A stretch of DNA of 64,000 nt. Source: Klebsiella phage N1M2. The number at the start of each line of letters is the position of its first letter. Positions within the stretch are counted from its first letter, which is position 1. Shown here piece after piece: positions 23,889-63,399 of this stretch. The stretch lies in the sequence record MN642089.1; one strand, given 5' to 3'. Under the pieces are notes generated by a model. It ran no database searches and was not told where the DNA came from. It saw only the letters and a list, made by a program, of their open reading frames with translations. The position numbers and the translations under genes are program-made.

Positions 23889-23905
23889 TTTTAGTTGTAT
23901 CTTAT

Positions 23906-27963: not shown

Positions 27964-28602
27964 TTATGGGTTTCTTGCTTTCAACTGATCTTCTAACTGT
28001 TTGATGTAAGCATACAGTTGTTGATTCTCAGTTGTCAGTTCTTCAATGCGAACTACGTCTGAAGGATTGCTAGTGATTGCTTGCTGACGTGTGTTTTCCC
28101 ATGCATCTGCCTGTTCTTTAGAAACATAACCACGAGTGGGCATTGTTCCTATAACAGTTCTCGGATCTTGGATACCAACAGAATTTTTGATGTACTCATT
28201 AAAATGAGCAATTACTGAATTGATACGATCTTTGAAAGCAGGTGGACACGCACCCAAATCAGAGATAATACAAACACGTTCATAGATCACACCATCAACT
28301 AGAGGGAATGATTTAAGATACGTCGATAAAAGATACGTATCAGGTCTTCCACGACTAGTCAGTACAATGACTACAGCTTCAGCTGCGATAGCTTGGTCCA
28401 GATAAGTTTGATACTGGTCTTGAGTAATACCAACCGGTTCAAACACGAGTTTGTAAATATCTTCTTTATCAGCTTGCATCTCAGGAATAGTGCGCACAGC
28501 TTCGACAGTATAGTAAATCTTTGGATCGACTACATTACTGAAAGGATTTTCAGCTTCGAAGGAACCTGCAGCCCAAATTGCTGGAATTAAGTTCTGACTC
28601 AT
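27964..28602 (-). CDS. hypothetical protein
   Basis: ORF. Confidence 0.5.
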   Translation of the reverse strand: MSQNLIPAIWAAGSFEAENPFSNVVDPKIYYTVEAVRTIPEMQADKEDIYKLVFEPVGITQDQYQTYLDQAIAAEAVVIVLTSRGRPDTYLLSTYLKSFPLVDGVIYERVCIISDLGACPPAFKDRINSVIAHFNEYIKNSVGIQDPRTVIGTMPTRGYVSKEQADAWENTRQQAITSNPSDVVRIEELTTENQQLYAYIKQLEDQLKARNP

Positions 28603-41508: not shown

Positions 41509-41540
41509 AATTACTCCATATTCTTTAGCGACTATTATAT

Positions 41541-41570
41541 TTCAAACAAATATTATCAAAGTAGATACGG
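41541..41570 (+). promoter_or_regulatory. promoter-like motif copy (TTCAAACAAATATTATCAAAGTAGATACGG) with TATAG box at ~41595
   Basis: family consensus. Confidence 0.5.
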
Positions 41571-46059: not shown

Positions 46060-49000
46060 TTAATTCATTCTCACCATTGGGGAATTACTAGAGCTGCGTT
46101 CCAACAACTGAGCAATCTTGTTAAGCGTTTGGTTAGCTATAGCAAGTTGACCTGCTGCGGTAGCATCTGTAGTATTGATATGATCAGGCATTGCAGGAGC
46201 TTGAACAACTTGAGGCATGGCCTGCTTATCAACTGGTTTAGCCGCTTCTTTAACTGGTGCTGGTTGAGCACTATTAGAAGAAGGACTAGAAGATGAAGTA
46301 GGAGCCCTAGGTTGATCGATAGATGGAGCACTAGAGTTAACTGTATTCACCGGACCATCATTAGTATCACCTGCAGCCACACCAGGATCGAGCGTTGAAG
46401 CTGTCTTCATTGGCGGTGGAGTACCTGCATTAGATGGTGCGGTATTGCGTGCATCTGATTTCAACAAGTCGCTAACGGTATTCTGACCAGGAGGTGTTGC
46501 GATTGGAGTATCTGTAGCTACGGCTCCTTGAGGAACACCTTTATCTGCTGCCGCAGGTGGTTCATTAGTTGGTGCTGGAGGAGTTGCAGCTGCTTGTTCG
46601 GCTTCTGCCCCATCTAGCGCTAAATCACCATTGCGGAGTTTATTCAGATATTCCTGATAGTATCTACGACGTTCATCTGTAGCTGGTACAGCATTACCGC
46701 CATTGATACCACGAACCGCTGTATCGAAATCACCCGTCTTAGCAATAGACAACATTGCCTTGTTGTTCTTAAGGAATCTAACAGCTGATTCAGCCATTAC
46801 ATTAGGATCCTCAGAAACCAACTGCGGATTACTAACAACATCGATACCCGTTTCTTTCTTGAACCGTTCGTAGTTTGCTTTACCAGTTAACTGGAAGAAA
46901 CCACGCCCACGATATTTCCAACCATCCTCAGGTGTAGTGTTTCCTAATTGTGGACCTTTAGGTGCACGACCATATACCCACATCGCTCGTTCAGCAGGAG
47001 ACATTGCTGCAACCTTCTGAGCTGTAGCGGCATCAGGAATGTTCTTAAAGTATTTCAGCAAGGTAGGTGCGGACCAGTTGGTGTTTTCCACCGTGTTCTG
47101 GTAGTTACCTGTTTCTTTCTTAACCATTGCCAAAGCAAGTGCGATAGTTTTAATATCAGTTATCCCAGCTTTAAGTAGGTGGTTAAGCATGAGCTTCTCA
47201 CCTTGCTCTGGGGACATCTTAATACCTTTATCTTCACCGGCCTTCTTCAAGAACTCTGGGTTAAAGTTAGCATCAGCTTTACCCATGAACTGACCTGCTG
47301 ACCCAGCACCGCCACCATCAACACTCATGGTAGGGTTAGGATAGACACTAGTGGGTCCGCCAGTTCTTACACCGTTCATAGATGGGGTGAATGAAGACCC
47401 ACCAATACCTTTGTTATTACCGAAAACTTCTTGGATAGCAGATTGAGCAGCTTGTCTACTTCTAGCAGCTTGTGCCATCTGAACTGGATCATCACCGCTA
47501 GTACCGCGAGATTTCTCTTCTTCCAACTCAGGATCTTTCAGTCTAGCTTCCTGTGCTTTCATATCCAAGATTTTCAGATATCTATCAGCACGGTCAGACC
47601 ATTTACCTGAAGTAGAGTTAGGGAATGGAGAAGCCTGAACTTCCCAAACAGTTTTAAGTTGTTCATCAACTGTCACCATTTGTTCGGTTAGTTTTCTAGC
47701 GACTTTGGCACGATTAGTAGCCGATAATTGTTTCCAACCTCTTTCCGGAACCACACCAGTTAATTTCTTAACCTCAATAGTGTATGTCATTAACGTAGGG
47801 AGGAATCGATCACGGAACCAAGTCATCCAATTCATCTCAGCCAGTTTAGTAGAGATTCTGAATGCTGGTTTAAACAGTTCTAACAGTTGAGAAGACTTAC
47901 CAGTGAATCTGGCTTGATCCCCAATTACCATGATGTAGGATTCGACATAACGTTCCAGACGCAATACCGCTTCCACACGCCAAGGCATGTTATCAATGTT
48001 ACCATAAACCGCAAGACGAGTCATGACGAATGGATCCATTTCCTTATCGCCACCAGGCATCAAGTCAGAGATATCAATCGTCTTAACTTGCTCTGGTTGA
48101 GAGAAACGTTTCTCAATGTCATCCATAGAAGCACGAGCTGCTATTTTAGACATCGCGTCTTGAGCAGTTATTTCAGCACTTGGACCAGTTTCTTTAGGAA
48201 CGCCTGGTGCTTGAGCTTTAGCATTAGCCTCTACCGTCGGTGCAATTTTCTCAACCGTAGTTGAAGGCTTAGGATAAGATTTTTCCATATCCTTAAGCAC
48301 TGCATCGATTTTGTGTCTCGTTGATTCCGGACCCATTGTGCCGTATTTAGAATCGACACGGACATCGATGGTAAATGGATTCGGCGAGAACGTATTCAGT
48401 GTTTGCTGAACTCTTTCCAATACCTGTACAACTTCATATCCCTTGGCATTATCGAATGACTCGATATCACCCATTCTTGCCACAGAGACTGCCGCGTTAG
48501 TGACAAGGAACACTGGTTTGAAACGAGCTACGAACCAAGTCTGAATAGCGCCTGCGTCGTGGTTAGTTCCTGAGTCGGTGTTCATGAAGTCAGTTAAGAT
48601 CTTCTCAATAGGTGCATCTTTCTTCAGAGAAGCACGATTATCTCGGATGGTGACGTAAGGATAAAGAACTTGTTCTAACCAACCCAGACGACGTCCAAAT
48701 GAAGATTGTTGATCAGCACAACCATACATAGCAAAACGAACGGCACGTGGTTGTGTAGCATACTGGGTTTTCAGTTCCCCGTATCCATCAGGAGTTTTAG
48801 AAACACCCTTGATCTTATCTTCATAAGCTTCCATCTCGTCTCGTTTAAAGAAGAACTTCTTATCACTTGACCAGAATAATCCATAGTTGTCCAGACCTTC
48901 TCTGGTTTCCTTATCCATAGGTAAGGAATCGGTAGCAGCTTTGGCCAACATACCAGATGGTAACCATTGGGTCAGTACATCAACTACGGCATCGCCTTGA

Positions 49001-52000
49001 GTACGATAGTGACCTGTTACTGAATCACGCTCGCCCATACTGACATCAGCCGCTGAGGTTGGTGTCGCATCTTGAGTATCATCTCCAAACATATCCGCTA
49101 AGAGATAACTACCAACTGCCGCAGTAGGGGAACCAAATGCGAATCTTCCCATGCGACCAAGTCGACCGCCACGACCAGCTCTCGCACCACCTCTTCTACG
49201 TCTAGTAGATTGACCACGTTGTTCAACGTCTAAGTCATCAGCAGGAGATCCCCCGAACAACCCTCTTCTCATTCCACCTGCGGCCTTGCCCATAACAAAT
49301 GCTTGTGCAAGTTTAGTGAAACCTAATTTGAGAAGTTTGTAGATTGGCGAGGCTACTCCTAACACACCACTAAACATGGCGCTACCAATTTTACCTAAAC
49401 GCTTGATTGAAGCTGCGGTAGTTCCCAATGCAAACTTACCTACACCACCAAGAATATCACCAATAGCACCAAGCGGGTTCTTGAAGAGTTTGACGGCAAA
49501 GCCACCGGCACCCATTACCAAACCTTTCAGTTTATCAAATAGACCACCACCTTCTTTCTTGCCAGCACCTTCTTCTTTACTACCACCGAGTGTCTCAGAG
49601 ATATTAATGATTGCTTCATTAACACGGTGCTTCTCTTGTTTCTCTTTCTGCTTTTCTTTCCAAGCCAAAGAGTTTAGACGCAAACTGTTATCTGAACTTT
49701 CACCCGTTACACCTAAAGGTTCATCGGGGTCTACTTCTGCAGGGATATCAAACTGTTTACAGAGTAAACGATAAATTTTGTCCAGACGACGCTCTACACC
49801 ATTCGGCCCAGATTTTCTTCCAGCAGCACCATTGCCTTCTCGATTAGGACCTTGAGAATAACCGAACCTTCCGAGGAGGTTATTGATCCCAGCTCTAGCC
49901 AACCCTGCCGCACCGCCAACCATATTAGCAGCCATACCGCCCACGTTACGTACAGCAGCACCTGAGGCAGTGACCAGACCGGACTGATATTCCTCTTCAC
50001 TAACCAGTTGATTACCTTGGTTATCATAAACAGCTCCATCAATCTCATTCCAACCAGTAATTGGTTTGAAACTACCATTGGCATCGCGAACGAAGTAATC
50101 ACCGGTTTTAAATTTACTAGCTCTTAATACAGGGTTCTTTAAATCAGATTTAAGGAACACATCCTGTTGATAGAGAAACTCTTTACCCAACTGAATGGTC
50201 GATCTAATACGCTCCATTGGGTTAAGCATGTTGTAAGCACCCACAGCCGCGTCTCTAACGCTACGCAAGCCTTTTAGTGCCACTGCTCTACCATCAGACC
50301 CAAAGATCTTCCCTGCTAACTCTCTGGCTCCCACAACGGACTTATTAATAGCATCCATTACTGGACCGCGGATATCTTCCCAAGTTTTAATAACTTTCTT
50401 GGTAGCCATGTCCACGTATTCACCAGCGCGCAGTTTGGCTGCCTTCAGAATAGGCTCACCGCGTTCGTCAAGGATATCTTCTTCATCCGAAGGAGCATCC
50501 CCTTCTGGAGCGGCACCTGATCTTTGACGATGTTGTAACCACGCACCACCCAACAATCCCAATCCAGCAACTGACGCCGCCATAATTGGGTTCTGCATGA
50601 ATGAAGACGCAACACCACCCAATAACCCACCAAGGATAAGAGGGTTGTTCTTGAAGAGGAATTCTGCAGATCTACCCAATACGTCATTTGGTACCAGTTT
50701 CTTAATACGATCAAGAACTGAACGTTTGGCTACTTCTTCTTGTTGCTCTACACGAGGGCTAGGGGCACCAGAGAACAACTTACCTGCTTTAGCTAAATCA
50801 AGCATGGTTGTGAGAAGCATCGACATTTCTGTCGTTTTATCGAGAATCCCTTGGTTACTGGTTTTGATGTCACTAAAGACACCAGTCTCAGAATCCCAAT
50901 TAACCGTAGTGGAGTTTTTGAGTTGGTCGAGGTTACTTAAGCGTTCATTCAAAGTTCCTAATGTATTATTAAGATCTTCATATGGATTAGCTGTAGGGCC
51001 AGCGCCAGCTCGTATTCCTCCCAGTGTTGGAGAAGGACCATTACCACTAGGGGTAGCACCTTTCAATACCGGGTTGTCTGGATTATCCATATACATTCCG
51101 ATACGATCATGGAATGCTTGGATGTTAATCTTATCGATACCATTATCGGTATAGATAACTCCTAAGTCACGGAGCATTTGTTCGTTACCAGTGGCACGTA
51201 ACAAATTAATACGTTCAGTGATATTAGGAATGTTTTCTTTTAAGTCCTGTGCTTTAGAACTAGCTGCGTTTAAACGTTCACGACCTTCTGCGGTATTAAG
51301 ACGCCCCAGCATTTTGGTTCTGGTTAAACCATCCCCACTTTGGAACTGTCTAACTTCATCATCGGTAATCCCGAAGTGACGTTTCATTACCGCATGGATT
51401 TCTTTCAGGTTCTCTGGAGAAACCCCTGGGATATCACCTAAGTAATAAAGAGGTTGGAAACCATACTCTTTGTCAACGTCGACAACGATCTGTTTAGCCA
51501 GCGCTTTACGAGCACCTGGTGATAACAGTTTGTCTGGATCCAAAGAGTCAACCATATTCAATGCAGCTGAAGTAAAGCTACGGAACTCAGAGTGAGGCAT
51601 TAAGTCAGAAGCGACTGAAATTCTTCTGTCGGAGTCTTTTTGGAATTGGCCTCGAGTATAGTTGTATCCAACTGACTCTACATCGTCACGACCGGTTCTC
51701 ATCTTTTCCAAGATAAGGTTAGTCTGAGAAATCAACCCTGGCAATACTTCATTCAGGGTGATGTTGTTCATCTCTTTCCAAATACCTGGTTTATCCAGAT
51801 CTTTAGGATTTCTTCTATTGATGGTATACTGAGTCCCGCGAGAGCGAGTGGTCTCTGACATCAATCGGTTAAGAGATTGTTTTGCTTTGTTCTCTGCAGC
51901 GTTCTTAGCCACCCAAACTGCTTTAGGTATTGGCTTGCGACCAGGAGGTAAACTATCTACATATTCCTCGTAATCGTAGAACCGCATCTCATCAAGAGGT

Positions 52001-53247
52001 TGCCAGTTATCCGCCATGTAGTTGGCAATACCACCACCAGACATAGCGATATGAGAAACTGTGTTACCCATATCTGTTACTTTGGCAATCTGTTCCCTAA
52101 TAAAGGTGCCTTGTTCAGGGTATTTCTTTATTAGGTTATCGATGGCTCTTTTACCTGGACCACGTGTAAAGAAGTATGGTAATTGGTCTACTGCCACACC
52201 AGCTATCATCTTACCAATGATATTGCCGAGCAAGCCGCGACTAAACCCTACATCACTACCCATCTCCAAACCGTCTGCAAGGTTCCCTAAGAGATCACTA
52301 ATCCCATTATAGGCATCTTTACGGTTACCGGCATTAAACCGATCACGGAGCATTCCAGAGATACCGCCAACACGTTTACCAACCGCATTGAACACACTGT
52401 TTCGCATGTACTCTTTGGATGCAGTAAATGTATTGGTCTTTTCAAAATCTGAAAGTTTACTGTACTGAACAATACGTTTCAGTTCAGCAACTTCGGCATG
52501 AATACCAGCTTCCATGAACTTGTAGAATTTCGCATCTTGAACATAAGAGCGTGCCATCAAGTTCAGTTTGGCTTGATCCAATTTAGCTTGTACATTTCTT
52601 TGGTAGCTAAGAAGGTCACGTATCCCACCTTCTATATTTACAAGCTGTCTATTACCTGCACCAATAGTTGCAGATATCTGACCGCCTACGGTGGCAGCCA
52701 TATTGTTTAAAGATTCACCGAGTGAAGCAAACATAGCTGATTGAGCCATTACTGAAGCATCAATAGCTTGGTCTACATCATCTTCGTCAACATTACCTAG
52801 TTTGGCATTGAAATTAGGATTTTCAGGATCGAGACGTTCCCAACTGGAGAAGTCTTTTTCACTGAAATTACCTAATGCATTCTGAGCAAAACCAGGAAGC
52901 TTTGAACCCATTCTCTGATTGAGGTGGGAAGCAATGCTTTGTAAGGATTTGGCGGATTCGGCATTTTCCTCTTTAAACTCTCTAACCAGATCGTCAACAC
53001 GACTACTGACAAAAGAAAGTTTATCAAGGGCATTGCTGTAAGAACTTGGTAAGATAGTTCTCAGTGTTCTCATGCGAGCTTCACCGGAACCTAAGGTTTC
53101 ATCAAAAGCACCTTGCAGAAAACCTGTTGCAAGACTTCTGACAAACCCCTTACCTTTAAAGGGATCCATATCGAAATCCATATCGAAATCTATATCCCCG
53201 GCAAATGGATCATCTCCCCAATCCATATCGAAATTATCGCTTGCCAT
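46060..53247 (-). CDS. giant virion-associated protein (2395 aa) with C-terminal GH19-family peptidoglycan hydrolase domain and Pro/Ala/Ser-rich tail; phiKZ gp181-like
   Basis: KKETGNY...WKYRGRGFFQLTGKANYERF matches GH19 E-T-G / Y-x-G-R-G-x-x-Q-L-[ST]-x-x-x-N-Y signature; N-terminal DFDMDFDMD acidic repeats; GAGGGT SD. Confidence 0.8.
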   Translation of the reverse strand: MASDNFDMDWGDDPFAGDIDFDMDFDMDPFKGKGFVRSLATGFLQGAFDETLGSGEARMRTLRTILPSSYSNALDKLSFVSSRVDDLVREFKEENAESAKSLQSIASHLNQRMGSKLPGFAQNALGNFSEKDFSSWERLDPENPNFNAKLGNVDEDDVDQAIDASVMAQSAMFASLGESLNNMAATVGGQISATIGAGNRQLVNIEGGIRDLLSYQRNVQAKLDQAKLNLMARSYVQDAKFYKFMEAGIHAEVAELKRIVQYSKLSDFEKTNTFTASKEYMRNSVFNAVGKRVGGISGMLRDRFNAGNRKDAYNGISDLLGNLADGLEMGSDVGFSRGLLGNIIGKMIAGVAVDQLPYFFTRGPGKRAIDNLIKKYPEQGTFIREQIAKVTDMGNTVSHIAMSGGGIANYMADNWQPLDEMRFYDYEEYVDSLPPGRKPIPKAVWVAKNAAENKAKQSLNRLMSETTRSRGTQYTINRRNPKDLDKPGIWKEMNNITLNEVLPGLISQTNLILEKMRTGRDDVESVGYNYTRGQFQKDSDRRISVASDLMPHSEFRSFTSAALNMVDSLDPDKLLSPGARKALAKQIVVDVDKEYGFQPLYYLGDIPGVSPENLKEIHAVMKRHFGITDDEVRQFQSGDGLTRTKMLGRLNTAEGRERLNAASSKAQDLKENIPNITERINLLRATGNEQMLRDLGVIYTDNGIDKINIQAFHDRIGMYMDNPDNPVLKGATPSGNGPSPTLGGIRAGAGPTANPYEDLNNTLGTLNERLSNLDQLKNSTTVNWDSETGVFSDIKTSNQGILDKTTEMSMLLTTMLDLAKAGKLFSGAPSPRVEQQEEVAKRSVLDRIKKLVPNDVLGRSAEFLFKNNPLILGGLLGGVASSFMQNPIMAASVAGLGLLGGAWLQHRQRSGAAPEGDAPSDEEDILDERGEPILKAAKLRAGEYVDMATKKVIKTWEDIRGPVMDAINKSVVGARELAGKIFGSDGRAVALKGLRSVRDAAVGAYNMLNPMERIRSTIQLGKEFLYQQDVFLKSDLKNPVLRASKFKTGDYFVRDANGSFKPITGWNEIDGAVYDNQGNQLVSEEEYQSGLVTASGAAVRNVGGMAANMVGGAAGLARAGINNLLGRFGYSQGPNREGNGAAGRKSGPNGVERRLDKIYRLLCKQFDIPAEVDPDEPLGVTGESSDNSLRLNSLAWKEKQKEKQEKHRVNEAIINISETLGGSKEEGAGKKEGGGLFDKLKGLVMGAGGFAVKLFKNPLGAIGDILGGVGKFALGTTAASIKRLGKIGSAMFSGVLGVASPIYKLLKLGFTKLAQAFVMGKAAGGMRRGLFGGSPADDLDVEQRGQSTRRRRGGARAGRGGRLGRMGRFAFGSPTAAVGSYLLADMFGDDTQDATPTSAADVSMGERDSVTGHYRTQGDAVVDVLTQWLPSGMLAKAATDSLPMDKETREGLDNYGLFWSSDKKFFFKRDEMEAYEDKIKGVSKTPDGYGELKTQYATQPRAVRFAMYGCADQQSSFGRRLGWLEQVLYPYVTIRDNRASLKKDAPIEKILTDFMNTDSGTNHDAGAIQTWFVARFKPVFLVTNAAVSVARMGDIESFDNAKGYEVVQVLERVQQTLNTFSPNPFTIDVRVDSKYGTMGPESTRHKIDAVLKDMEKSYPKPSTTVEKIAPTVEANAKAQAPGVPKETGPSAEITAQDAMSKIAARASMDDIEKRFSQPEQVKTIDISDLMPGGDKEMDPFVMTRLAVYGNIDNMPWRVEAVLRLERYVESYIMVIGDQARFTGKSSQLLELFKPAFRISTKLAEMNWMTWFRDRFLPTLMTYTIEVKKLTGVVPERGWKQLSATNRAKVARKLTEQMVTVDEQLKTVWEVQASPFPNSTSGKWSDRADRYLKILDMKAQEARLKDPELEEEKSRGTSGDDPVQMAQAARSRQAAQSAIQEVFGNNKGIGGSSFTPSMNGVRTGGPTSVYPNPTMSVDGGGAGSAGQFMGKADANFNPEFLKKAGEDKGIKMSPEQGEKLMLNHLLKAGITDIKTIALALAMVKKETGNYQNTVENTNWSAPTLLKYFKNIPDAATAQKVAAMSPAERAMWVYGRAPKGPQLGNTTPEDGWKYRGRGFFQLTGKANYERFKKETGIDVVSNPQLVSEDPNVMAESAVRFLKNNKAMLSIAKTGDFDTAVRGINGGNAVPATDERRRYYQEYLNKLRNGDLALDGAEAEQAAATPPAPTNEPPAAADKGVPQGAVATDTPIATPPGQNTVSDLLKSDARNTAPSNAGTPPPMKTASTLDPGVAAGDTNDGPVNTVNSSAPSIDQPRAPTSSSSPSSNSAQPAPVKEAAKPVDKQAMPQVVQAPAMPDHINTTDATAAGQLAIANQTLNKIAQLLERSSSNSPMVRMN

Positions 53248-53277
53248 TAATTTACCCTCGTTTAGGATATCTCAGTA

Positions 53278-54894
53278 ATGAGCAGAAAACCTACTAACTT
53301 TACCTTGCTTGATACAAACAAGGTGCCCTGGGGAACTATGACACCAGTTACGGTGGCAGACTCGTTCGAAGGGCAAACTAGTAACCTTAATGATGATGGT
53401 TTATATTCCACATCCATCTTTGGCCGTGTAGGTACGGATGAACGTGATAAAACTATCTCATATATCGATGTTACTCTCCCAATATTCAACCCCACGTATT
53501 TTAAAGCACTAATTCAACTGAAAGCTTTATACGGCGAAATCATCCGGGGTAGAGCATATGCAGTTTGGGATGCTGCTGAAAAGGATTTCATAAAATCCAA
53601 CATCTTAGAAGGCGATACTGGATATGCTTTCTTCATGTCACATTTCCACGAACTCGATCCTGTACAGAATGAATCTTTCAAACGTAAACAGAAGATCGAC
53701 CTGGTAGAACAATTCAGAGACAGAGCGCTCTCTAATAAGGTTATCGTTATACCTGCCGGTATTCGCGATATTGAAATGAACAACGGCGTTGTTTCAGAAA
53801 ACGAGATCAACGACCTTTATCGTAAACTTATCTTCCGTTCCAAATCTCTTAACGTAAGAAATGTGGACATCGACGATCCAGTCTATGATAATATCCGTTG
53901 GGGTTTACAAGAGTCTTTCAACAATATCGCTGACTTCCTATTTAAGATGCAGGAAGGTAAACGTGGCTTCATGCAACGTCGCATGTCACGCCGTAGTATT
54001 TTCGGGGCGACTCGTAACGTTATTACCTCCCGTAAAGTATCAGTAGAAAACTGCGACGATAACGTCACAGGCGATCCTAACTCCACCATCATCGGTTTGT
54101 ATCAAGCACTGCTTGGATTCAACCTGGTGGCCATACATGAACTCTCAAGTGGGTTCTTGAGTGAAGTGTTTACTTCTGGTATGGGTGTTGCTCGTCTCGT
54201 TGACCCTAAAACGCTCAAGGGAACTTATGTTGATGTAAGTCCGGTAGTCGTAGATAAATTTACTTCTTCAGATGGCTTGACTTCTCTCTTTAATGGTTAT
54301 GGTTCTCCTAACTTGAGAAACCGTGATATCAGAGTAGCTGGCCACTATCTCGGATTGGTTTATGACGACGGTAAGAATGTCATGCTGTTACACGACATTG
54401 ACGATCTTCCTGAATCATTCGATAAGAAGAAAGTTAGACCGGTAACTTATACTCAGTTCTTTTATATGCAATGTGTAAAAGCAATTGAGAAGAAGATGTT
54501 GCAGGTTACACGTTACCCAATCACAGGTATCGGTTCTATCTATCCGAGCCGTGTCTTTGTAATGCCAACTAACTCAACTTCCAGCAAACGTACATTATTA
54601 GATATTGATGGTTCCCCAATCGATACTTATAACTACTTCCCGGAATGGACTAAGAATCCAAGTTACTTTGACGGTATGTCTATTGCGAATATTCGCTTGG
54701 GACTTGCCGGTGGTGACTTCGATGGCGACGCCTTGTCTGCTAACTCCATTATGGCTGAAGACTCCATTGCTGAGATTGAGAGTTTGTTTGGTAAACGTGA
54801 CTTCTACATTTCTGGTTCTGGTGATTTCCTTTATGACCCAGTTCAGGAACCACATGAATTCCTTTTACGCTCATTAACAAATGGATTAGCATAA
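53278..54894 (+). CDS. multisubunit RNA polymerase beta-prime N-terminal half homolog (through catalytic DFDGD loop)
   Basis: IFGRVGTDE (cf. RIFGPVKDYE), VIPAGIRDIE..SENEINDLYRKLIFRSKSL (cf. LPPDLRPLV..SDLNDLYRRVINRNNRL), KRGFMQRRMSRRSIFGATRNVITS (cf. [23 protein letters not shown]), GGDFDGDAL (cf. NADFDGDQM). Confidence 0.8.
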   Translation: MSRKPTNFTLLDTNKVPWGTMTPVTVADSFEGQTSNLNDDGLYSTSIFGRVGTDERDKTISYIDVTLPIFNPTYFKALIQLKALYGEIIRGRAYAVWDAAEKDFIKSNILEGDTGYAFFMSHFHELDPVQNESFKRKQKIDLVEQFRDRALSNKVIVIPAGIRDIEMNNGVVSENEINDLYRKLIFRSKSLNVRNVDIDDPVYDNIRWGLQESFNNIADFLFKMQEGKRGFMQRRMSRRSIFGATRNVITSRKVSVENCDDNVTGDPNSTIIGLYQALLGFNLVAIHELSSGFLSEVFTSGMGVARLVDPKTLKGTYVDVSPVVVDKFTSSDGLTSLFNGYGSPNLRNRDIRVAGHYLGLVYDDGKNVMLLHDIDDLPESFDKKKVRPVTYTQFFYMQCVKAIEKKMLQVTRYPITGIGSIYPSRVFVMPTNSTSSKRTLLDIDGSPIDTYNYFPEWTKNPSYFDGMSIANIRLGLAGGDFDGDALSANSIMAEDSIAEIESLFGKRDFYISGSGDFLYDPVQEPHEFLLRSLTNGLA

Positions 54895-57800
54895 TGTTCA
54901 AAGAACCTATCATTATTGATGGGAGTGAGGCCATGCAGTATAACATGTTTGTTAAGCTGTATGGTACTCGCGAGAAGACTAACGATATCACCAATCCCCG
55001 CTATACTCCTGTCGGGGATATCATGCTTCCGCGTAATTCACTCATTCACTATCAACAGCAACATCCTGGTGAAATAGGTCCGAGTAACACCGCACCTTTT
55101 ATTAGTAACTTTGATAAACGTATCAACATTTACTTTAACGTTAATTATGAAACTGTTCTTGGTGTAACTAAAATTGAGAACATTCAGTTAAGTAAAATTA
55201 TCAAAGGCTACGAAGGTTCACACTTCATCTATAGTCGTGCTCGTCAATATCAGACGGTCATTGGTAAAGAAGGTGAGCTGTTAGTAAACGACTTGGCTGT
55301 AGGTCAGATTCCTGTTGTCTATAAACGCAGAACTGTATTCACGCCATATCAAAAATCCTACAACGAAATGTACACGTTGATGGATTCCGTAAATGAATTT
55401 GCTAAGTTTGGTCGTCACCAGTTTATCCAAATTGAAATGCCTCGCGTCTTCCCTACCTTTAAAAATCTTCAGCTGAACTTTGAGAAGTATAAGAAGTTCT
55501 TTAATGAAGATTATGAAGTTGTTCGGTATGACAAGATTCCTCTTCAACCATTCCAAGCAGAGCAATCATTCTGGTTGTTGGATCTGTATGGGATTCTGAT
55601 GGGTTATGAAGATGCTAAGTACAGCCTGTTTAACCGTTTGAGTGATCAAGCACGTCAACAGCTGGAAATCATTTTCACCTATAACGGTATGTGCTGGATT
55701 GTTAACTTACAGAACCTAATTAACGTTCTGAGTTATTCAGACAAACCTAATGATGAAAAAGCTAGCTCTTTAAAGATCAACTATTTCAAACGCTTCTATC
55801 TATCTTTAATTAGCCTAGTTACTCCTATCTCGGAAGGTATTGGGAAAGTTAAGGATGAAGAAGAAGATAACGGGGACGATGACCAAGACGGGCAGTCAAC
55901 TAGAAGAGAAACTGCTGATGACAAATCGTCCGAAGAAGGGGTTCCTGGGAAGGGTACCGCTGTGGGTGATAATTCTGGGGGTAGTTCTTTGGCTGATCTT
56001 TACGCCAGCACTCCGAGAAGCGATACTCTACAAAACGACGCCGTACGAAGTGAGGGAACGCAAGCTGATACTGAAGCACATGACCCAGTCGCCGATGCAT
56101 CAGACGAGGAAGACGACGTAGACCAAGACAGTTGGGGACAAGATGTCCCAGATGAACTGTTTGAACGTGCTACTGTTGAAAACGTCTCTCTGACTGTCGC
56201 TCAAGCTGCAAGTCCTACTTCAACTATCTCTCGTCAATTAACGGAACTTTCTCGTAACGGTCAATTAACTTCCAAAGAGAAAGACTTTTATGAAAGAGCT
56301 GCTAACAGTTATCATGACATTGAGTTTGGCGGACACACGCTGGCTGAGATCGTAGATATCAAACCTGAGGACATGGTTCTCAAAGATACTTCGATTGCTC
56401 CAGACTCAATCGTAATTACTGATAAGTCGGCCCTTAAATCACGTACTGAACTTCTCAGCGATGAGTACATCAAGAACATTCACCAGAGAAACATTCTGGA
56501 AATGATTCTGCATGTTCAGAACGGCGGTACCGCATTAACCGATCTGGAAGTAGAAAGAACAATTACGGCTGACTCTAAGTATGATGTTTATACCATGAAG
56601 TTCCAGCGTGTTAAAGGTGGACAATCTACTCGTCGTATGCGTTTACCTGTGGTTGAAGAAGATGGTACCTTTACCATTAACGGTGTTAAGTCTTATATGC
56701 AGTTAATGCGTATGGAACTTCCTATCCGCAAAATCTCTCCAACTAAGGTTGCCCTCACTTCTTATTACGATAAGAAGGTAATGGTTGAACGCTCAACTAA
56801 GAAAGTAGATGACTATGCTCGTTGGTTGAAATCGAGTATCATCGAAAGGTCTTATGTTGATAAGACTCTCCAGGTAGGTCTTGGTGGATTCAAACCACCT
56901 AAAGAAGAAGTCTGTTACTATTATTCTGTTCTGGCTTCCCGTTTCAAAACCGTCATTACTCCCGAATACCATTTCGACTTCGATACTGTTTCCTTAGTAG
57001 ATGGTAAACGTGAGTTGGCTAAGTTGTGTAATACCAACAGCTGGTTAATTGGCTTTAAAGGCGAACACCCTATCCTTATCGATAGCACTGGTCTGATTAC
57101 AGTGGATGGGGCAGAGCAAGGTTATATTGAAGAGATCTTGGGGTTAAACATTTCCAAGGCTCCTATCCCTACTGCTACTGTTAACATCAATGGGTATCAT
57201 TTCCCAGCGATTGTTGTTCTGTCTTATTGGATTGGTTTCAGTAATGTCCTGAAGGCTCTCAAAGCTCAGTACCGAACTGTAGACCCTGATCAACGTCCTA
57301 ACTTAGGCGCTGATGAGTATATGGTCCAGTTAGCCGATGAACGCTTGATCTTCAACCGTCGTGATGAACTTACCACACTGGTGATGTCCGGTCTTCGTAA
57401 GTTAAACAACTTGAGTAACTTCTCTCGTTCTAACTTAGATGATCCTAATATCTGGTTTGGTCTTGTCGGTGACCAACGTGTTAAACCAAGTCACTTCAAA
57501 GAAATGACTATGTTGTATGACATGTTTATCGATCCGATTACGATGCGTTTGTTAGAGAAATTCAAATATCCAGTTGTTATGGATAAGTTGATCATCGAAG
57601 CTGTTAAGCTGATGCTCTCTAATGAATCCAAACACGAAATCGAAATCACCGAACAACGTTTCGTCGGTTATGAACGTTTTGCTGGTCATGTTTATCGTGA
57701 GATGGTTAAAGCAACTCGTCAAGCACGTAACAAACCAAATAACGGTAAGGTTACTTTCGACCTCAACCCTGAAGCCGTGATGATGAACATTATCACTGAC

Positions 57801-59234
57801 TCCTCAGCCCAAGCTTGTGAAGAGGTTAACCCAGTTCACCAAGTTAAGCAACAAGAGGAAGTTACTTTCGGTGGTTCATTGGGTCGTAGTGATCGTGCAA
57901 TGGTTCGTCGTACTCGTGGTCAATTACCTAACTATGAAGGGATTATCTCTGAGGCAGGTAAAGACTCCGGTAAAGTTGGTTTCATTAGTTACCTAACTTC
58001 TGATGCCAAGATCGTTGACCTTTATGGTAACATTAACGTTAAAGAGAAAACAACCAACACTGGTCGTGGCTCTGTCGTTATGAACTTACTGTACGGTACA
58101 ACGAAGGACGATACCAAACGTACTCTGTTCTCTGGTGTTCAGCAGTCTCAGGTTATGGCTGCGGATAACTACGTGATGAACCCGCTGCGTACTTCTTATG
58201 ATACCGTTCTTGCTTATCGTACTTCTGAACTTTATTCTTCTGTTGCAAAACAAAATGGTAAAGTGACTGAAGTTACTGCTTATGGCATGAAAGTTGAATA
58301 TGAAGATGGTTCCGAAGATAAGTTCCCATTAGGTTATGAGATTGGTAAAGGTGCTGGTGAATATCATAAGCACATGAAAATTACCGACTTCAAAGTTGGG
58401 GATAAGTTTGAGAAGGGAACTATTGTAGCGTGGGATGAGATGTTCTTTGCACGAGACAACATTGATCCGACTCGCGTTGTGTGGAAAGCTGGTGCGATTG
58501 CTCGTATTGCATTGATTGAAGACCAGTTCACCTTTGAGGACTCCATCGGTATCGTTAAAGGTTTTGCTGAAGCTTCGACTTCTCCATTCCTTAAACCGAA
58601 TGATTTCAAAGTAGAAGCTGTTCAATCTATCAAGATGCATGTGAAGGTTGGTGATACTGTTGAGTACGATCAGATCCTATGTGACATCGAGAACCCGGTC
58701 TCGGCTGTATTCGAAGCTGATGATAGTGGTGATTTTGATGGTCTTGATCGTGCGGGTATTAAACAGATCAAAGCTAAACAGTCTGGGGTGATCTCTAAAA
58801 TTGAAGTTGTTTATAACGGCGACATCGATGGTTGGAGTGAATCTCTTCGTTCCTTTATTAACAAGCAAAATGGGATTCGTTCTAAAGTAGCTAGTTATAA
58901 AGTGAATGCCGCTACAACTGGTAACGTTGGTGGTAACACTTCGGTTGGTAAATCTAAAGTGTATCCTGATACTGCTGTTGTTTATATTTATATCGACAAC
59001 AAGATCAAAACCACTACTGCAGATAAGTTCGTAGTTGGTAACCAGATGAAAGGCACTGTTGGGTTTATCTATGAACACCCAATCTACACTACCGACGGTC
59101 GTCCTGTAGATATTACGTTCTCTCTTAAATCACTACTGAACCGAATGGTACTTAGTCTTCGTGACAAGTTGGTAGCGAATGAAGTGAACAACGTTTATAC
59201 AGAACGCATGGTTTCGAAATACGGAAAATATTAA
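54894..59234 (+). CDS. multisubunit RNA polymerase beta-subunit homolog (N-terminus to GRHGNKG-region) with ~100-aa acidic insertion
   Basis: DGTFTINGVKSYMQL (cf. KGTFIINGAERVIVSQL), FGGSLGRSDRAMVRRTRGQLPNYEGIISEAGKDSGKVGFISYL (cf. Rif-region [43 protein letters not shown]), TFEDSIGI (cf. NFEDSILV), DKFVVGNQMKGTVGF...GRPVDITFS (cf. DKMAGRHGNKGVISK...GTPVDIVLN); start overlaps upstream stop (TAATG). Confidence 0.8.
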   Translation: MFKEPIIIDGSEAMQYNMFVKLYGTREKTNDITNPRYTPVGDIMLPRNSLIHYQQQHPGEIGPSNTAPFISNFDKRINIYFNVNYETVLGVTKIENIQLSKIIKGYEGSHFIYSRARQYQTVIGKEGELLVNDLAVGQIPVVYKRRTVFTPYQKSYNEMYTLMDSVNEFAKFGRHQFIQIEMPRVFPTFKNLQLNFEKYKKFFNEDYEVVRYDKIPLQPFQAEQSFWLLDLYGILMGYEDAKYSLFNRLSDQARQQLEIIFTYNGMCWIVNLQNLINVLSYSDKPNDEKASSLKINYFKRFYLSLISLVTPISEGIGKVKDEEEDNGDDDQDGQSTRRETADDKSSEEGVPGKGTAVGDNSGGSSLADLYASTPRSDTLQNDAVRSEGTQADTEAHDPVADASDEEDDVDQDSWGQDVPDELFERATVENVSLTVAQAASPTSTISRQLTELSRNGQLTSKEKDFYERAANSYHDIEFGGHTLAEIVDIKPEDMVLKDTSIAPDSIVITDKSALKSRTELLSDEYIKNIHQRNILEMILHVQNGGTALTDLEVERTITADSKYDVYTMKFQRVKGGQSTRRMRLPVVEEDGTFTINGVKSYMQLMRMELPIRKISPTKVALTSYYDKKVMVERSTKKVDDYARWLKSSIIERSYVDKTLQVGLGGFKPPKEEVCYYYSVLASRFKTVITPEYHFDFDTVSLVDGKRELAKLCNTNSWLIGFKGEHPILIDSTGLITVDGAEQGYIEEILGLNISKAPIPTATVNINGYHFPAIVVLSYWIGFSNVLKALKAQYRTVDPDQRPNLGADEYMVQLADERLIFNRRDELTTLVMSGLRKLNNLSNFSRSNLDDPNIWFGLVGDQRVKPSHFKEMTMLYDMFIDPITMRLLEKFKYPVVMDKLIIEAVKLMLSNESKHEIEITEQRFVGYERFAGHVYREMVKATRQARNKPNNGKVTFDLNPEAVMMNIITDSSAQACEEVNPVHQVKQQEEVTFGGSLGRSDRAMVRRTRGQLPNYEGIISEAGKDSGKVGFISYLTSDAKIVDLYGNINVKEKTTNTGRGSVVMNLLYGTTKDDTKRTLFSGVQQSQVMAADNYVMNPLRTSYDTVLAYRTSELYSSVAKQNGKVTEVTAYGMKVEYEDGSEDKFPLGYEIGKGAGEYHKHMKITDFKVGDKFEKGTIVAWDEMFFARDNIDPTRVVWKAGAIARIALIEDQFTFEDSIGIVKGFAEASTSPFLKPNDFKVEAVQSIKMHVKVGDTVEYDQILCDIENPVSAVFEADDSGDFDGLDRAGIKQIKAKQSGVISKIEVVYNGDIDGWSESLRSFINKQNGIRSKVASYKVNAATTGNVGGNTSVGKSKVYPDTAVVYIYIDNKIKTTTADKFVVGNQMKGTVGFIYEHPIYTTDGRPVDITFSLKSLLNRMVLSLRDKLVANEVNNVYTERMVSKYGKY

Positions 59235-59236: not shown

Positions 59237-60103
59237 ATGGCTAATAGTAACACTGATGTATTCGCAATTAAAACATTGCAATCATTGTTACGAGAGCTTT
59301 CCCTATATAAAGGCCGCATTGACGGCCTTTTTGGGCAAGGTTGTCGTGATGCATTTAAATTGATGTTGCAAACTCATACTCCTAGTTTCAACACCACTCT
59401 CTATCAAGGTAGCTATGATGCAAGTCAAGTCTTTACTCTGGTTCAGACTGGTTTGGCTGCTGTTGGTCTATATACCCGTCGTATTGATGGTATCTGGGGT
59501 AGCGGCACTATGGATGGTTTCAATGAGCTTGTTGAATTCTATCGCAAAGCCAAAGGTCTCCCAACGTACTGGTTTGCGTGGTCTGGGCATCCGAATGTCC
59601 CGGCGGCAGGTGTCGAGAATTATAAAGAATGGGTGATGCATTGGGGCAAACCTGCCGATCACACTTCCTTTATTCTCAGCTGTAATGCATTAGAAACTGG
59701 TCGTACTTTTAATCCTGCTATCCGTAACCCTAAATCTGGAGCAGTTGGCTTGATTCAATTCATGCCTAAAACTACTGCACCTGATCTGGGGACTACAGCA
59801 GATGCTCTTGCTAAAATGACTTTTGTTGAGCAACAAGAGTATGTCTTCAAATATTTTGAAAAGTACGGTTATATTAAGAAGTGCCAGCACCTTGAAGATT
59901 ACTATCTTTCTATCTTCATGCCGAAACTGGTTGGTAAGAGCCCAGATGAAGTCGTTGCTTCTCGTGGTTCTCTGACTTATTCCCAGAACGCTGGTTTCGA
60001 TGCCAATAAGAAAGGTTATTATACTGTAGGTGATATCGCATCTGCTATTAACCAGTTCTATTGGGATGGTCTGGATCCTAAGAACCGTAAAGTTATTAAT
60101 TAA
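59237..60103 (+). CDS. endolysin-like protein: two PG_binding_1 repeats + C-terminal lytic transglycosylase (SLT-like) domain; phiKZ gp144-type architecture
   Basis: IDGLFGQGCRDAF and IDGIWGSGTMDGF repeats; ALETGRTFNPAIRNPKSGAVGLIQFMPKT resembles SLT E-S/T...G-x-x-Q-F motif. Confidence 0.65.
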   Translation: MANSNTDVFAIKTLQSLLRELSLYKGRIDGLFGQGCRDAFKLMLQTHTPSFNTTLYQGSYDASQVFTLVQTGLAAVGLYTRRIDGIWGSGTMDGFNELVEFYRKAKGLPTYWFAWSGHPNVPAAGVENYKEWVMHWGKPADHTSFILSCNALETGRTFNPAIRNPKSGAVGLIQFMPKTTAPDLGTTADALAKMTFVEQQEYVFKYFEKYGYIKKCQHLEDYYLSIFMPKLVGKSPDEVVASRGSLTYSQNAGFDANKKGYYTVGDIASAINQFYWDGLDPKNRKVIN

Positions 60104-60130: not shown

Positions 60131-60297
60131 ATGTCTGCTGTAGACAATATCATTACAGTTAGCAACTTGTTTGAAGTTGTTAGCAAAGTAAAAGAAAAAG
60201 TAGGTTACGAGTTCCAGGCTCCTTTGGAAGCTGATGAACAGAACGAAGTTACCTCTCGTGCTATTAAACAGAAAATCATGGAGAGCGTCTCAGAATG
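60131..60297 (+). CDS. small hypothetical protein (55 aa)
   Basis: ATG with AAGGA SD; ATGA overlap with next gene; below size cut-off. Confidence 0.3.
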
Positions 60298-61812
60298 ATT
60301 ACCCAACAAACTGTCCTGATGGCTACTCCGATCGCATTACTTGCAACTGAGAAAGGCATCGATCTTCATGATAATGTTAGTGACGTTATCAAAGGTCTGA
60401 ATGAATGTACCGCCAATATCCGTGGGTTTACTGAGGACAACATCGCTGTTGAACTTCCTGAGTTTACCGAAGCTGTAAACGAACACACCATGGTTCTGGA
60501 AGAAGCGACTACCATTATTGCAGAACGCATTCGTTCAGCTCTGAACCTGATCTCTAAAACTGTTAAGCCTATTCTGAAAGATGTTGAAAACAGACTTCGT
60601 TCAGAAATCGATCCAGGTAACGTTGCAGATACTATCTTTAGTTATCTCGATGTCGAAATGGTTAACATTGAACCAAGCTTCCTGAATAGCCCGTATTACC
60701 CTAATGCGATGCCTCAGAACTTTATCGATGTTCCGACCATTCGTCTTAACCAACTTCTGCTGGGTACGTATCCATCTCTGTCTTCAGAAGAACTGGTTGA
60801 CCTGATCGCGGTAAACGTAGACGACCTGACTGGTTTCTGGTCTAACCCAGAAGAAGTAAAACGTATTTATGAAACCTTCTTTGTTGAAAAGAACTGGTGG
60901 GAACTGTTTGATGGTTCTGCTATCTCCAACGGTTCTGCTGATCTGGGTAACTACGAAAACTACGCATTTAAAGCTTTCCGTCCTCTGGTTATCGGTAGCC
61001 TGCTGCTGAACAGACTGGTTGCAATGGAAGATCCGCTTGATGGCGTTACTGGTGTTAGCCTGGAAGATTATCGTACTTCCCTGCTTGTTACCCGTGATCT
61101 GTTCAACGCCATGCTTTATAAGTTTAAGCAGGTTTGGGAAACTCGTGCAGCTGCTGGCGTAGTAATCATTAACGATGGTGTTCGCGTTGAAACTGCTGAC
61201 TGGGGTAACCTAGTAGGTAATCAAGTACTGACCGGTAAACTGCTTGTTGGTTATAACAATGCCGTACTGGAAATGTTTGCAGATAAAGAAGAGATGTCTC
61301 TTACTGAATTTGCTGCTGGTTATGCTTACGCTAAGACTCGTGACTACGCAGTTAAAGATATCATTACTGATAAAGAAACTGTAACTGCCGCTTGGCAGGA
61401 ATATTGCGGTGATATGCGTACTGCTCTGGTAGTTCGTAAAGGTAGTATCGCTAAGCGTATTTTCTGTCAGGTTCTGGAAGGTCTGTACGCTAAAGAAGAA
61501 TATAAACCATTCATCGATATTATTGATGAACATATTCATCCGACTCAGCGTATCCTGTCTCGTGTTCAACAGCATGTTGACCTGGATCTGTTCTTTGCCA
61601 ATATCCCAATGCTGGATGCCGTTATTCGTGAAGAGAACTCTCTGATGAATACCGTATTGGCAGCTAACCTGTCTGATGCTTTCGATTCTCCTATTGCTAG
61701 CGAAATCTTGACCATCAACGCATCTATGCCTGCTCACTCTCTGGTACAGCAGCGTAAACACCTGTCTCGTTCCATTGACCTGGTTATCCTTAACAGACTG
61801 ATCAAACTGTAA
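60295..61812 (+). CDS. hypothetical protein (505 aa), likely late/structural
   Basis: ORF. Confidence 0.55.
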   Translation: MITQQTVLMATPIALLATEKGIDLHDNVSDVIKGLNECTANIRGFTEDNIAVELPEFTEAVNEHTMVLEEATTIIAERIRSALNLISKTVKPILKDVENRLRSEIDPGNVADTIFSYLDVEMVNIEPSFLNSPYYPNAMPQNFIDVPTIRLNQLLLGTYPSLSSEELVDLIAVNVDDLTGFWSNPEEVKRIYETFFVEKNWWELFDGSAISNGSADLGNYENYAFKAFRPLVIGSLLLNRLVAMEDPLDGVTGVSLEDYRTSLLVTRDLFNAMLYKFKQVWETRAAAGVVIINDGVRVETADWGNLVGNQVLTGKLLVGYNNAVLEMFADKEEMSLTEFAAGYAYAKTRDYAVKDIITDKETVTAAWQEYCGDMRTALVVRKGSIAKRIFCQVLEGLYAKEEYKPFIDIIDEHIHPTQRILSRVQQHVDLDLFFANIPMLDAVIREENSLMNTVLAANLSDAFDSPIASEILTINASMPAHSLVQQRKHLSRSIDLVILNRLIKL

Positions 61813-62549
61813 TGGAAATAGAAAAGCTGAAGAAAGATCGTGGGCGGATTGATTCCGCCCTTAAAGTCATGCCAGATGGAAGCGTGGTTGCTTTAAAGAA
61901 ACTTACAGTTTGTTTTCCTAAGCGTTTCGAACAAAGCAACTTAGCAGAAATTTCAGATACCGTCACTTGCATTTTAATGTTGGGTGTTATCGTTGGTGAC
62001 GCATACGGTTTCCTGGGTGGGATGGTTAAAGTTAATCTCCTCCCAGGAGATATCTATGAAGAAACAATTGGAAACGATCGTTACTTCATGCTTGAGTTTG
62101 AACCTGGTGATATTGTTATTGAATCGTTGACTGTTCCTATGGACTCCAACATCGGTTACTATTATTACCTTGAGTTCACCAAGTATGCTCGTATCCCATG
62201 GTATTTTGATGCTGCTGATTTACTTAGTGTTTATGATGAAGCTAAGTTCTATACTGGCAAGTCAATGGGGACAAGTAACCAAGCCATTCGCGTATTCTAC
62301 GCTTTGACTCAACGTGATCCTAAAGACTTAGGTATTCCGTTCCGTTACTCGTCAAGTCTCAAAGACCCAGCAGTGAAACCTCGCATTATCGGTATTAACA
62401 ACCCAGGGCAGTTGCTCAACTCTACCTTCAGCCGTTTGGCTTCTGGTTATATGTCTGACAACATCATCTCTGGTATTCTTAATCCTGATACTAAGGTTAC
62501 ACATCTGGAAGAAGTTATTCGTGGCCTTCCGGCTGCAGGTGGTAATTAA
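61812..62549 (+). CDS. hypothetical protein
   Basis: ORF, TAATG overlap. Confidence 0.5.
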   Translation: MEIEKLKKDRGRIDSALKVMPDGSVVALKKLTVCFPKRFEQSNLAEISDTVTCILMLGVIVGDAYGFLGGMVKVNLLPGDIYEETIGNDRYFMLEFEPGDIVIESLTVPMDSNIGYYYYLEFTKYARIPWYFDAADLLSVYDEAKFYTGKSMGTSNQAIRVFYALTQRDPKDLGIPFRYSSSLKDPAVKPRIIGINNPGQLLNSTFSRLASGYMSDNIISGILNPDTKVTHLEEVIRGLPAAGGN

Positions 62550-62550
62550 G

Positions 62551-63399
62551 ATGGATGAAATTAGTTTAGGTAATATCGTTCTTGCTCATTCAGGTAAGAA
62601 AGGTATTCTTCGTCCTGACGCTGATGGTCTGTATGAATTAAACGCTGGGGGTTTTAATATCCCCAACCATGCTGGTATTACCTATCCAGCTAATGAATAC
62701 ATCATCTCTCAGATCGAAGAGAACAGTGACCTTAACCGTCGTGTTAAAATGGGTTACTGCAAGATGGAAGTTGAGCACCCTGAACCATTTATTTATGTCA
62801 TTGAAAATGGTGTGAAGTATCGTGCACCTATGACTGACGTTATTCAGTGGATCAACCGTTTGCGTTCTTTCGACCCAGATCGTATCTGTGGTTTGATCAG
62901 TCAAGTTATTTGGCGTCCTGAAGACAACCGTAACTTATCCAAACCTATTTGGAACCTGATCAAATGTAAACCATTCGGTCCGCGTGGTCCTGAGTTCCAA
63001 GAATCTCTGGAAACTCCTCAGCATAACACGGCTGTTAGTATCCGTACTCAGATCTCCCCATTCCGTCCTGGTGAACTCCAGAAGAACGTTGAATACTGGA
63101 CTGGTTATGATTGGGTATCTGAGCCTGGTATGGTTCATGCTAACAAACACATGACTGCTGGTTGTGAATCCTTCTTGAATGATTTTGGTATGGTTGACAA
63201 CATGAAGAAATTCAAAGTTGCCGACGTTATCGAAAAACTTGATCATGCTCTTGCTACAGCAACATCTGGTGAAGAACTGGATCGTGTTGGTGGTATGGAA
63301 GCACTTGGTCAATATCGTGACATGCTGTCAGCGATCAAGAAGAACTACCGTGCTGGTGAAACCACCACTATGGGCGTTAGCTTTACTGATATCTTCTAA
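62551..63399 (+). CDS. hypothetical protein
   Basis: ATG 62551 right after upstream stop; six-frame ORF extends to 62521. Confidence 0.5.
   Translation: MDEISLGNIVLAHSGKKGILRPDADGLYELNAGGFNIPNHAGITYPANEYIISQIEENSDLNRRVKMGYCKMEVEHPEPFIYVIENGVKYRAPMTDVIQWINRLRSFDPDRICGLISQVIWRPEDNRNLSKPIWNLIKCKPFGPRGPEFQESLETPQHNTAVSIRTQISPFRPGELQKNVEYWTGYDWVSEPGMVHANKHMTAGCESFLNDFGMVDNMKKFKVADVIEKLDHALATATSGEELDRVGGMEALGQYRDMLSAIKKNYRAGETTTMGVSFTDIF

Follow-up and report, generated by a model that had tools for sequence, protein, structure and literature searches.

Which RNA polymerase (RNAP) do two adjoining genes of Klebsiella phage N1M2 serve, how much of that enzyme do they encode and where do its remaining pieces lie? 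The pair occupies positions 53,278 to 59,234 of a 64,000-nucleotide stretch of sequence record MN642089.1 (hereafter, the window). An initial annotation, made from the letters of the window, had read it as a split multisubunit RNAP in which a gene for the N-terminal part of beta-prime is translationally coupled to a truncated beta gene. We conclude, with a probability of roughly 0.95, that the two genes encode the beta-prime and beta N-terminal subunits (beta'N and betaN) of the five-piece virion RNAP (vRNAP) of a Chimalliviridae (phiKZ-like, OBP-clade) jumbo phage, an enzyme that lacks sigma, alpha and omega subunits. In outline this is already known: N1M2 proteins identical in sequence are deposited under the names virion-associated RNAP beta' and beta, and ORF64, ORF222 and ORF223 are the three genes of virion-associated RNAP given in the N1M2 paper (PMC7058600).

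The open reading frame (ORF) pair, the TAATG overlap that joins it and every motif quoted in the initial annotation could be located, in the order claimed (Table 1). The 538-residue beta'N carries IFGRV at amino acids (aa) 47-51, DLYRKLIFRSKSL at 179-191, SIFGATRNVIT at 240-250 and GGDFDGD at 478-484, and the 1446-residue betaN carries GTFTING at 591-597, TFEDSI at 1213-1218, GNQMKGTV at 1382-1389, GRPVDI at 1402-1407 and NRMV at 1416-1419. The junction reads cataatgttc, in the context ...GCATAATGTTC, such that the TAA stop codon of beta'N (54892-54894) shares one base with the ATG start codon of betaN (54894-54896). An identical one-base overlap is annotated in phages OBP, Sureiya and AH04, and in N1M2 it probably couples translation of the two genes. 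Searches with PHROG profiles placed beta'N in phrog_2986 (E 5.9e-206; residues 4-535 against profile positions 6-539 of 539) and betaN in phrog_3148 (E 0; residues 14-1444 against profile positions 2-1421 of 1424), both of which carry the label RNA polymerase beta subunit. Judged by sequence, the motif set is far above chance, and the PHROG matches span the full length of both proteins.

With its sequence alone as query against the Protein Data Bank (PDB), beta'N matched the beta' N-terminal chain of the AR9 non-virion RNAP (nvRNAP; chain 7S01_d, E 8e-9), in an alignment that pairs GGDFDGD with SGDYDGD. A profile of nine beta'N sequences (A2) improved this match to E 1.7e-13 and also detected RpoC1/gamma chains of plastids and cyanobacteria (E 3e-6 and weaker) and, below these, bacterial beta'; RpoC1/gamma subunits are natural N-terminal halves of a split beta'. 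G478, D480, D482 and G483 are invariant in 9/9 aligned beta'N homologues, and 54 residues remain in the protein after DFDGD. The translation contains two cysteines in all, none of them within aa 47-100, and beta'N thus lacks the zinc-binding motif that bacterial beta' has after its IFG block. By these alignments, beta'N is the N-terminal piece of beta', bearing the catalytic Mg2+ loop and ending soon after it, as had been proposed.

A search of the PDB with the single betaN sequence returned nothing at E<=1. When a nine-sequence betaN profile (A1) was used, 41 chains were matched at E<=1, all of them RNAP beta and among them those of Thermus (E 3.9e-11), E. coli and Mycobacterium. The profile aligns with Thermus beta in three collinear blocks: GTFxING against residues 118-134; the fork region, profile positions 1045-1216 against 537-697; and profile positions 1350-1408 against 821-881, where DKfVvaNQmKGtvg...DGrxVDI...nRM pairs with GDKLANRHGNKG...PSRMN. 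D1377, K1378, N1383, Q1384 and K1386, in the last of these blocks, are invariant in 9/9 betaN homologues aligned, and 27 residues of the protein follow NRMV. The alignments indicate that betaN is the N-terminal piece of beta and stops just past the two active-site lysines, in agreement with the earlier statement that it ends right after the equivalent of GRHGNKG. The label "truncated beta gene" is correct for this C-terminal end but omits some 430-470 non-beta residues at the N terminus. Recovery of RpoC and RpoB similarity had been set as the test of the initial annotation, and the profile searches against solved structures matched beta' (A2) and beta (A1), respectively.

Orthology and gene order both place the pair with the vRNAPs of phiKZ-type phages. 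A tblastn search with betaN matched 304 phage records, every one a jumbo phage, and aligned it to PHIKZ178 (30.6% identity over aa 482-1421, E 3e-130) and to the SPN3US-type gp241 (aa 18-1422). By megablast, Serratia phages Sureiya and Yubaba carry the gene pair at 88% identity, and Pseudomonas phage OBP carries it at 75%. The phiKZ series gp180, (gp179), gp178, gp177.1, gp177, gp176 and gp175 (protease) has the gene order of the window, where counterparts start at 53278 and 54894 and continue with a gp177-like gene (60295-61812) and the genes at 61812-62549 and 62521-63399. The arrangement of giant hydrolase, beta'N and betaN is found as well at the AH04, PS1, BUCTxx100, SPN3US-like, Agrican-like, pTD1 and 201phi2-1 loci; the EL locus is orthologous and syntenic too, in a sequence piece that ends short of the hydrolase region. 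A split polymerase of the phiKZ type is therefore upheld by PHIKZ178 orthology together with phiKZ synteny. The initial annotation had further taken adjacency to the hydrolase to suggest a virion RNAP: the virion enzyme stands, by orthology, but adjacency alone is weak evidence for it, and more weight attaches to the conserved synteny gp181-gp180-gp178-gp177-gp176-gp175.

What is known of the orthologues concerns a packaged enzyme. In phiKZ, the vRNAP subunit with the DFDGD motif is gp180, of which each virion holds ~10 copies and which co-purifies with gp178, gp80 and gp149 (PMC10612078). The SPN3US vRNAP consists of five subunits, gp241 (betaN), gp218 (the beta C-terminal piece, betaC), gp240 (beta'N), gp42 (the beta' middle piece, beta'M) and gp244 (the beta' C-terminal piece, beta'C), which enter the head only once they have come together as a complex (PMC5105663, PMC5694885), and vRNAP subunits of both phages have been found in virions (PMC5105663, PMC5694885, PMC10612078). 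Heads of the SPN3US mutant 241(am) have lost every vRNAP subunit. The record of 201phi2-1 marks gp273/274 (betaN) and gp275 (beta'N) as identified by mass spectrometry. We assign the N1M2 pair to a virion rather than a non-virion enzyme because it is orthologous to phiKZ gp180/gp178, SPN3US gp240/gp241 and 201phi2-1 gp275/gp273-274.

Ahead of its beta-like body, betaN consists of a family-specific domain followed by an acidic, disordered linker of low complexity. The linker (aa 316-432) contains 35 Asp/Glu against 9 Lys/Arg and is 30% acidic, compared with 10.5-15% in other betaN segments, with acidic strings at aa 322-349 and 404-421. An acidic stretch, 74-128 aa long and 23-40% Asp/Glu, occupies the same place in 11/11 betaN homologues aligned, a set made up of the window, Sureiya, OBP, AH04, PS1, BUCTxx100, EL, pTD1, Bosolaphorus, an SPN3US-like phage and phiKZ. 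Its islands SLADLYAS and W..D..DDELF are small and clear in the closer relatives only. Identity in the linker is 79% to Sureiya, against 93-97% elsewhere in betaN, and 42% to OBP, against 58-80% elsewhere; on these comparisons, the linker is evolving much faster than the remainder of the protein.

For the N-terminal domain, a word-indexed protein search gave one fragment, and it was an exhaustive search of 1.84 billion representatives that revealed relatives, 184 of them at E<=1e-3. Among the 150 matches listed, the domain sits N-terminally in proteins mostly ~450-1600 aa long, plus some shorter fragments. An AlphaFold2 model of the domain has a predicted local distance difference test score (pLDDT) of 92.7 and a predicted template modeling score (pTM) of 0.90. 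A search of BFVD yielded 10 matches at E<=1e-3, seven unnamed and three named (two RNA polymerase subunits and one uncharacterized Myoviridae protein), and nothing credible beyond them; despite its confident predicted fold, the domain has no relative among solved structures. SPN3US gp241 has a non-beta extension of ~400 residues, and targeting of the complex to the head has been proposed in general terms (PMC5105663). By analogy with that proposal, the domain and linker of N1M2 betaN most likely serve the targeting or handling of the complex in head assembly.

Some observations weigh against assigning the pair to a vRNAP. Packaging of the enzyme in N1M2 virions is argued from orthology; neither protein reaches a Pfam gathering score, the RNA_pol_Rpb2_6 match on betaN (aa 1268-1418, profile positions 128-268 of 373) scoring 21.7 bits against a 23.4-bit cut-off; and a Pfam search with beta'N found no Rpb1 family at E<=1. 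We take the sub-threshold scores to mean that both proteins are only remote homologues of cellular RpoB and RpoC, outside the curated families. With virion location resting on orthologues, the pair might instead encode subunits of the non-virion (middle/late) RNAP of a jumbo phage, since both jumbo-phage enzymes are split beta/beta' homologues and the only solved relative that beta'N matches well is the non-virion beta'N of AR9. That match is probably due to the content of the PDB copy searched, in which we detected nvRNAP chains and cellular enzymes but no solved virion enzyme. A non-virion enzyme would also leave unexplained that the 1446-aa protein is orthologous to the vRNAP subunits PHIKZ178 and SPN3US-type gp241, has the vRNAP-type non-beta extension of ~430-470 aa and sits in the gp181...gp175 head-gene block. 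Moreover, a tblastn search of the window for the SPN3US nvRNAP proteins gp34 and gp35 gave nothing at E<1, and the N1M2 paper gives separate nvRNAP genes, ORF37, 51 and 52 (PMC7058600). We consider a non-virion assignment very improbable.

How the N-terminal part of betaN is to be understood is a separate matter. The initial annotation had described the acidic stretch as an insertion; it is indeed ~100 aa long, rich in Asp/Glu and without counterpart in cellular beta, properties that would suit a lineage-specific insertion into the beta fold, private to the N1M2 enzyme. It does not, however, lie inside beta-homologous sequence, the first such motif being GTFTING, downstream of it, and every one of the 11 homologues, those of OBP, phiKZ and SPN3US-like phages included, has it in the corresponding place. 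We therefore regard it as an ancestral linker common to the betaN family, and a private insertion as scarcely credible. A tentative possibility is that domain and linker serve as a propeptide, or as a signal for capsid targeting, and are cut away by the S80 prohead protease once packaging is complete. The precedent is 201phi2-1, where this protease cuts betaN at TFE-275 and the N-terminal part is lost (PMC5694885). The TFE-275 site aligns to a 201phi2-1-specific insertion just past window aa ~290, a region that in the AlphaFold2 model is a low-confidence loop (aa 281-290) ahead of the last helix of the domain, but N1M2 has no S/A/G-x-E at the aligned position. Close relatives keep an [ST]-[VI]-E motif where the linker ends (SVE, TVE and SIE in OBP, AH04 and PS1), and ATVE-429 of N1M2 may be a candidate cleavage site; the protease gene lies 3 kb downstream. 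Against cleavage, SPN3US gp241 is clearly unprocessed and phiKZ gp178 probably so (PMC5694885), and a domain that is conserved and, in the model, well folded is equally compatible with a permanent function, such that we hold processing to be unlikely, if well short of negligible. More doubtful is a packaging and ejection module, formed by domain and linker, whose linker acts as a DNA mimic in the cleft and silences the polymerase until ejection; were this true, the enzyme would be silent during cytoplasmic assembly and storage among packed DNA and be released after ejection.

The initial annotation had also expected the C-termini of beta and beta' in separate genes, and a betaC gene and a candidate beta'C gene indeed lie within the window. 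The betaC protein matches phrog_3233, "RNA polymerase beta subunit" (E 3.8e-79), and, by tblastn, SPN3US_0218 (gp218); its start is GTG 38966 in the program-made ORF list and ATG 38969, one codon later, in the deposited 225-aa N1M2 protein. In a PDB search with a 27-sequence betaC profile (A5), E. coli beta 1162-1310 came first (E 0.004) and RNAP beta chains made up all of the top 13; the alignment to E. coli beta pairs TGQPtGdSkaGG...E with TQQPLGGKAQFGG...E. Going by the aligned segment, betaC picks up roughly where betaN ends. The candidate beta'C matches PHIKZ176 by tblastn (24% identity over 97% of its length; E 4e-16 in the collection, 5.6e-21 locally), and its gene is situated just upstream of the prohead protease gene, as in phiKZ. 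PhiKZ gp176 has been equated with SPN3US gp244, which is beta'C by SPN3US genetics and proteomics (PMC5105663). A search with a 40-sequence profile of the N1M2 protein gave no RNAP match, and we name it a candidate beta'C by its homology to gp176. For beta'M (SPN3US gp42 = PHIKZ080), tblastn found no match in the 64-kb window at E<1. The OBP homologue, annotated as virion-associated RNAP beta', is encoded at 71.9-73.2 kb, ~100 kb from the OBP beta'N/betaN pair on the circular map. In N1M2, the expected beta'M gene would be ORF64, the third virion RNAP gene in the list of the N1M2 paper (PMC7058600). The window accordingly holds 4/5 vRNAP subunit genes (beta'N, betaN, betaC and candidate beta'C). 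A 443-aa virion protein (28599-29930, minus strand) was considered as beta'M and rejected, as it matches SPN3US "virion structural protein 21" (178.7 kb) and not gp42.

OBP (gp277/gp278) and Sureiya/Yubaba (genus Petsuvirus) share with N1M2 the gene pair, its one-base overlap and the upstream giant hydrolase on the opposite strand, as well as the endolysin, gp177-like, gp176-like and protease genes downstream. OBP_277 and OBP_278 are annotated as virion-associated RNA polymerase beta' and beta, and the differences of OBP and Sureiya from N1M2 are concentrated in the acidic linker. The phiKZ vRNAP comprises gp180 (beta'N), gp178 (betaN), gp149, gp80 and gp176, orthologous to the N1M2 subunits. 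Together with the SPN3US enzyme it has the same split points, the same head-gene synteny and a betaN with a non-beta N-terminal domain and acidic linker, whereas identity to N1M2 is only 26-31%. An extra gene, gp179, lies between gp180 and gp178 in phiKZ, where N1M2 has none, and the endolysin gene that follows betaN in N1M2 is absent from the equivalent phiKZ locus. In N1M2 the betaN gene is continuous, unlike that of 201phi2-1, whose annotation places a mobile element within it (piece 11442-16280); betaN is annotated as two ORFs each in Aeromonas phage PS1 (piece 2501-7259) and phage EL (piece 2498-7232). The break in PS1, EL and 201phi2-1 falls near window aa ~1070-1085, and an intron-encoded HNH endonuclease (ORF185) is annotated upstream in EL.

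The nvRNAPs of AR9 and phiKZ (PDB 7S00/7S01/7UM0; phiKZ structure PMC8287921) resemble the N1M2 enzyme in their split beta and beta', in lacking alpha, omega and sigma, and in a DxDGD motif within a short beta'N that ends just past the barrel. They differ in being paralogous and not virion-packaged, in their beta split site (PMC7598289) and in a betaN without N-terminal domain or acidic linker. With bacterial RpoB/RpoC and RpoC1 (gamma) the N1M2 proteins have the conserved catalytic blocks in common, and the split of beta' after the barrel is similar to that of cyanobacterial gamma/beta' (PMC7598289). Departures from the bacterial RpoB/RpoC arrangement are the split of beta, near E. coli residue ~1130, and the position of the beta' gene before that of beta.

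Table 1. Features of the N1M2 window discussed in the text
Feature	Position	Strand	Remarks
beta'N gene, vRNAP beta-prime N-terminal subunit	53278..54894	+	ATG, 538 aa; deposited N1M2 QGH72085.1
GGDFDGD catalytic Mg2+-binding loop of beta-prime double-psi beta-barrel	54709..54729	+	aa 478-484; AR9 alignment
TAATG stop/start overlap, beta'N/betaN	54892..54896	+	Junction read in sequence
betaN gene, vRNAP beta N-terminal subunit	54894..59234	+	ATG, 1446 aa; deposited N1M2 QGH72086.1
Family-specific N-terminal domain of betaN, aa 1-315	54894..55838	+	Unrelated to cellular beta
Acidic low-complexity linker of betaN, aa 316-432	55839..56189	+	30% Asp/Glu
beta-like body of betaN, aa 433-1446	56190..59234	+	Ends after second double-psi beta-barrel lysine block
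ADKFVVGNQMKG, equivalent of bacterial GDKxxxRHGNKG, two active-site lysines	59019..59054	+	aa 1376-1387
vRNAP beta C-terminal subunit (betaC), 225 aa	38969..39646	+	phrog_3233; orthologue of SPN3US gp218
Candidate vRNAP beta-prime C-terminal subunit (beta'C), 245 aa	61812..62549	+	PHIKZ176 orthologue; deposited N1M2 QGH72090.1
2395-aa GH19-containing peptidoglycan hydrolase (gp181-like)	46060-53247	-	Divergent, upstream of beta'N
288-aa protein, N-terminal PG_binding_1, weak SLT/transglycosylase match	59237-60103	+	Directly follows betaN
Prohead protease gene (gp175-like)	62521-63399		Peptidase_S80, E 1.9e-69
Early-promoter motifs	6703-6726, 7720-7743, 17694-17717, 19916-19939, 23905-23928, 41540-41563	all +	Consensus scan
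GroEL-like chaperonin	21086-22645	+	phrog_5725, E 6e-122

In the vRNAP that we propose, the DFDGD Mg2+ site would lie in a double-psi beta-barrel contributed by beta'N; betaN would bring the second barrel, which holds the two active-site lysines, together with the lobe, protrusion and fork regions. The core would be completed by betaC, the candidate beta'C and a middle piece of beta' whose gene lies beyond the window. Following the work on phiKZ and SPN3US, the subunits would be made mid or late in infection, assemble in the cytoplasm and be incorporated into the prohead. As for its orthologues, the complex would then leave the head together with the ejected DNA, arrive in the early infection vesicle and transcribe early genes from AT-rich early promoters. 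Virion location, the five subunits and pre-assembly have been described (PMC5105663, PMC5694885, PMC10612078, PMC7598289), as has early-gene transcription without sigma, alpha or omega (PMC7598289, PMC13282480).

The early-promoter consensus published for N1M2/OBP, TTTCARRYAKATATTATYWAAGTG, has six matches in the window (0-3 mismatches; 0 expected in shuffles), which are presumed to be recognition sites of the virion polymerase. The scan found none from 41.6 kb to the window end, consistent with non-early expression of beta'N and betaN. The vRNAP genes of phiKZ are middle genes, not transcribed by the vRNAP itself (PMC10612078), and the distribution of motifs in N1M2 fits this pattern. The divergent start codons of beta'N (plus strand) and the hydrolase (minus strand) are 30 bp apart (53248-53277), a gap that would put the promoters of either gene inside the coding sequence of the other or much further off. 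Between 52.5 and 64 kb, a sigma-70 scan gave 14 sites, fewer than the 25.1 +/- 5.1 in shuffles, and identified no host-type operon promoter; a terminator scan gave 3, against 7.3 in shuffles.

Elsewhere in the window, the gene for the 288-aa protein occupies the position of OBP gp279, a characterized modular endolysin (PMC3352856). An HNH endonuclease gene (phrog_59, E 7e-35) adjoins the ribonucleotide reductase small-subunit gene (4495-5310 and 5344-6489, both minus strand) and may be a homing-endonuclease insertion; the reductase ORF begins with TTG in the program-made list. At E<=1e-5, the PHROG search gave no match for the minus-strand ORFs 820-3636 (938 aa), 3715-4452 (245 aa) and 31928-33016 (362 aa) or for the plus-strand ORFs 6781-7635 (284 aa) and 16736-17635 (299 aa).

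The locus itself is typical of its phage family, and its enzyme belongs to a well-described family. Two N1M2 genes that the record names merely "virion structural protein" are open to re-annotation, as vRNAP betaC and candidate beta'C, and the N-terminal domain of betaN, an orphan fold predicted with high confidence, is a target for structural work on polymerase packaging. A vRNAP allows nucleus-forming jumbo phages to begin transcribing within the early infection vesicle independently of the host enzyme, and this makes the vRNAP central to the resistance of these phages against host defenses.

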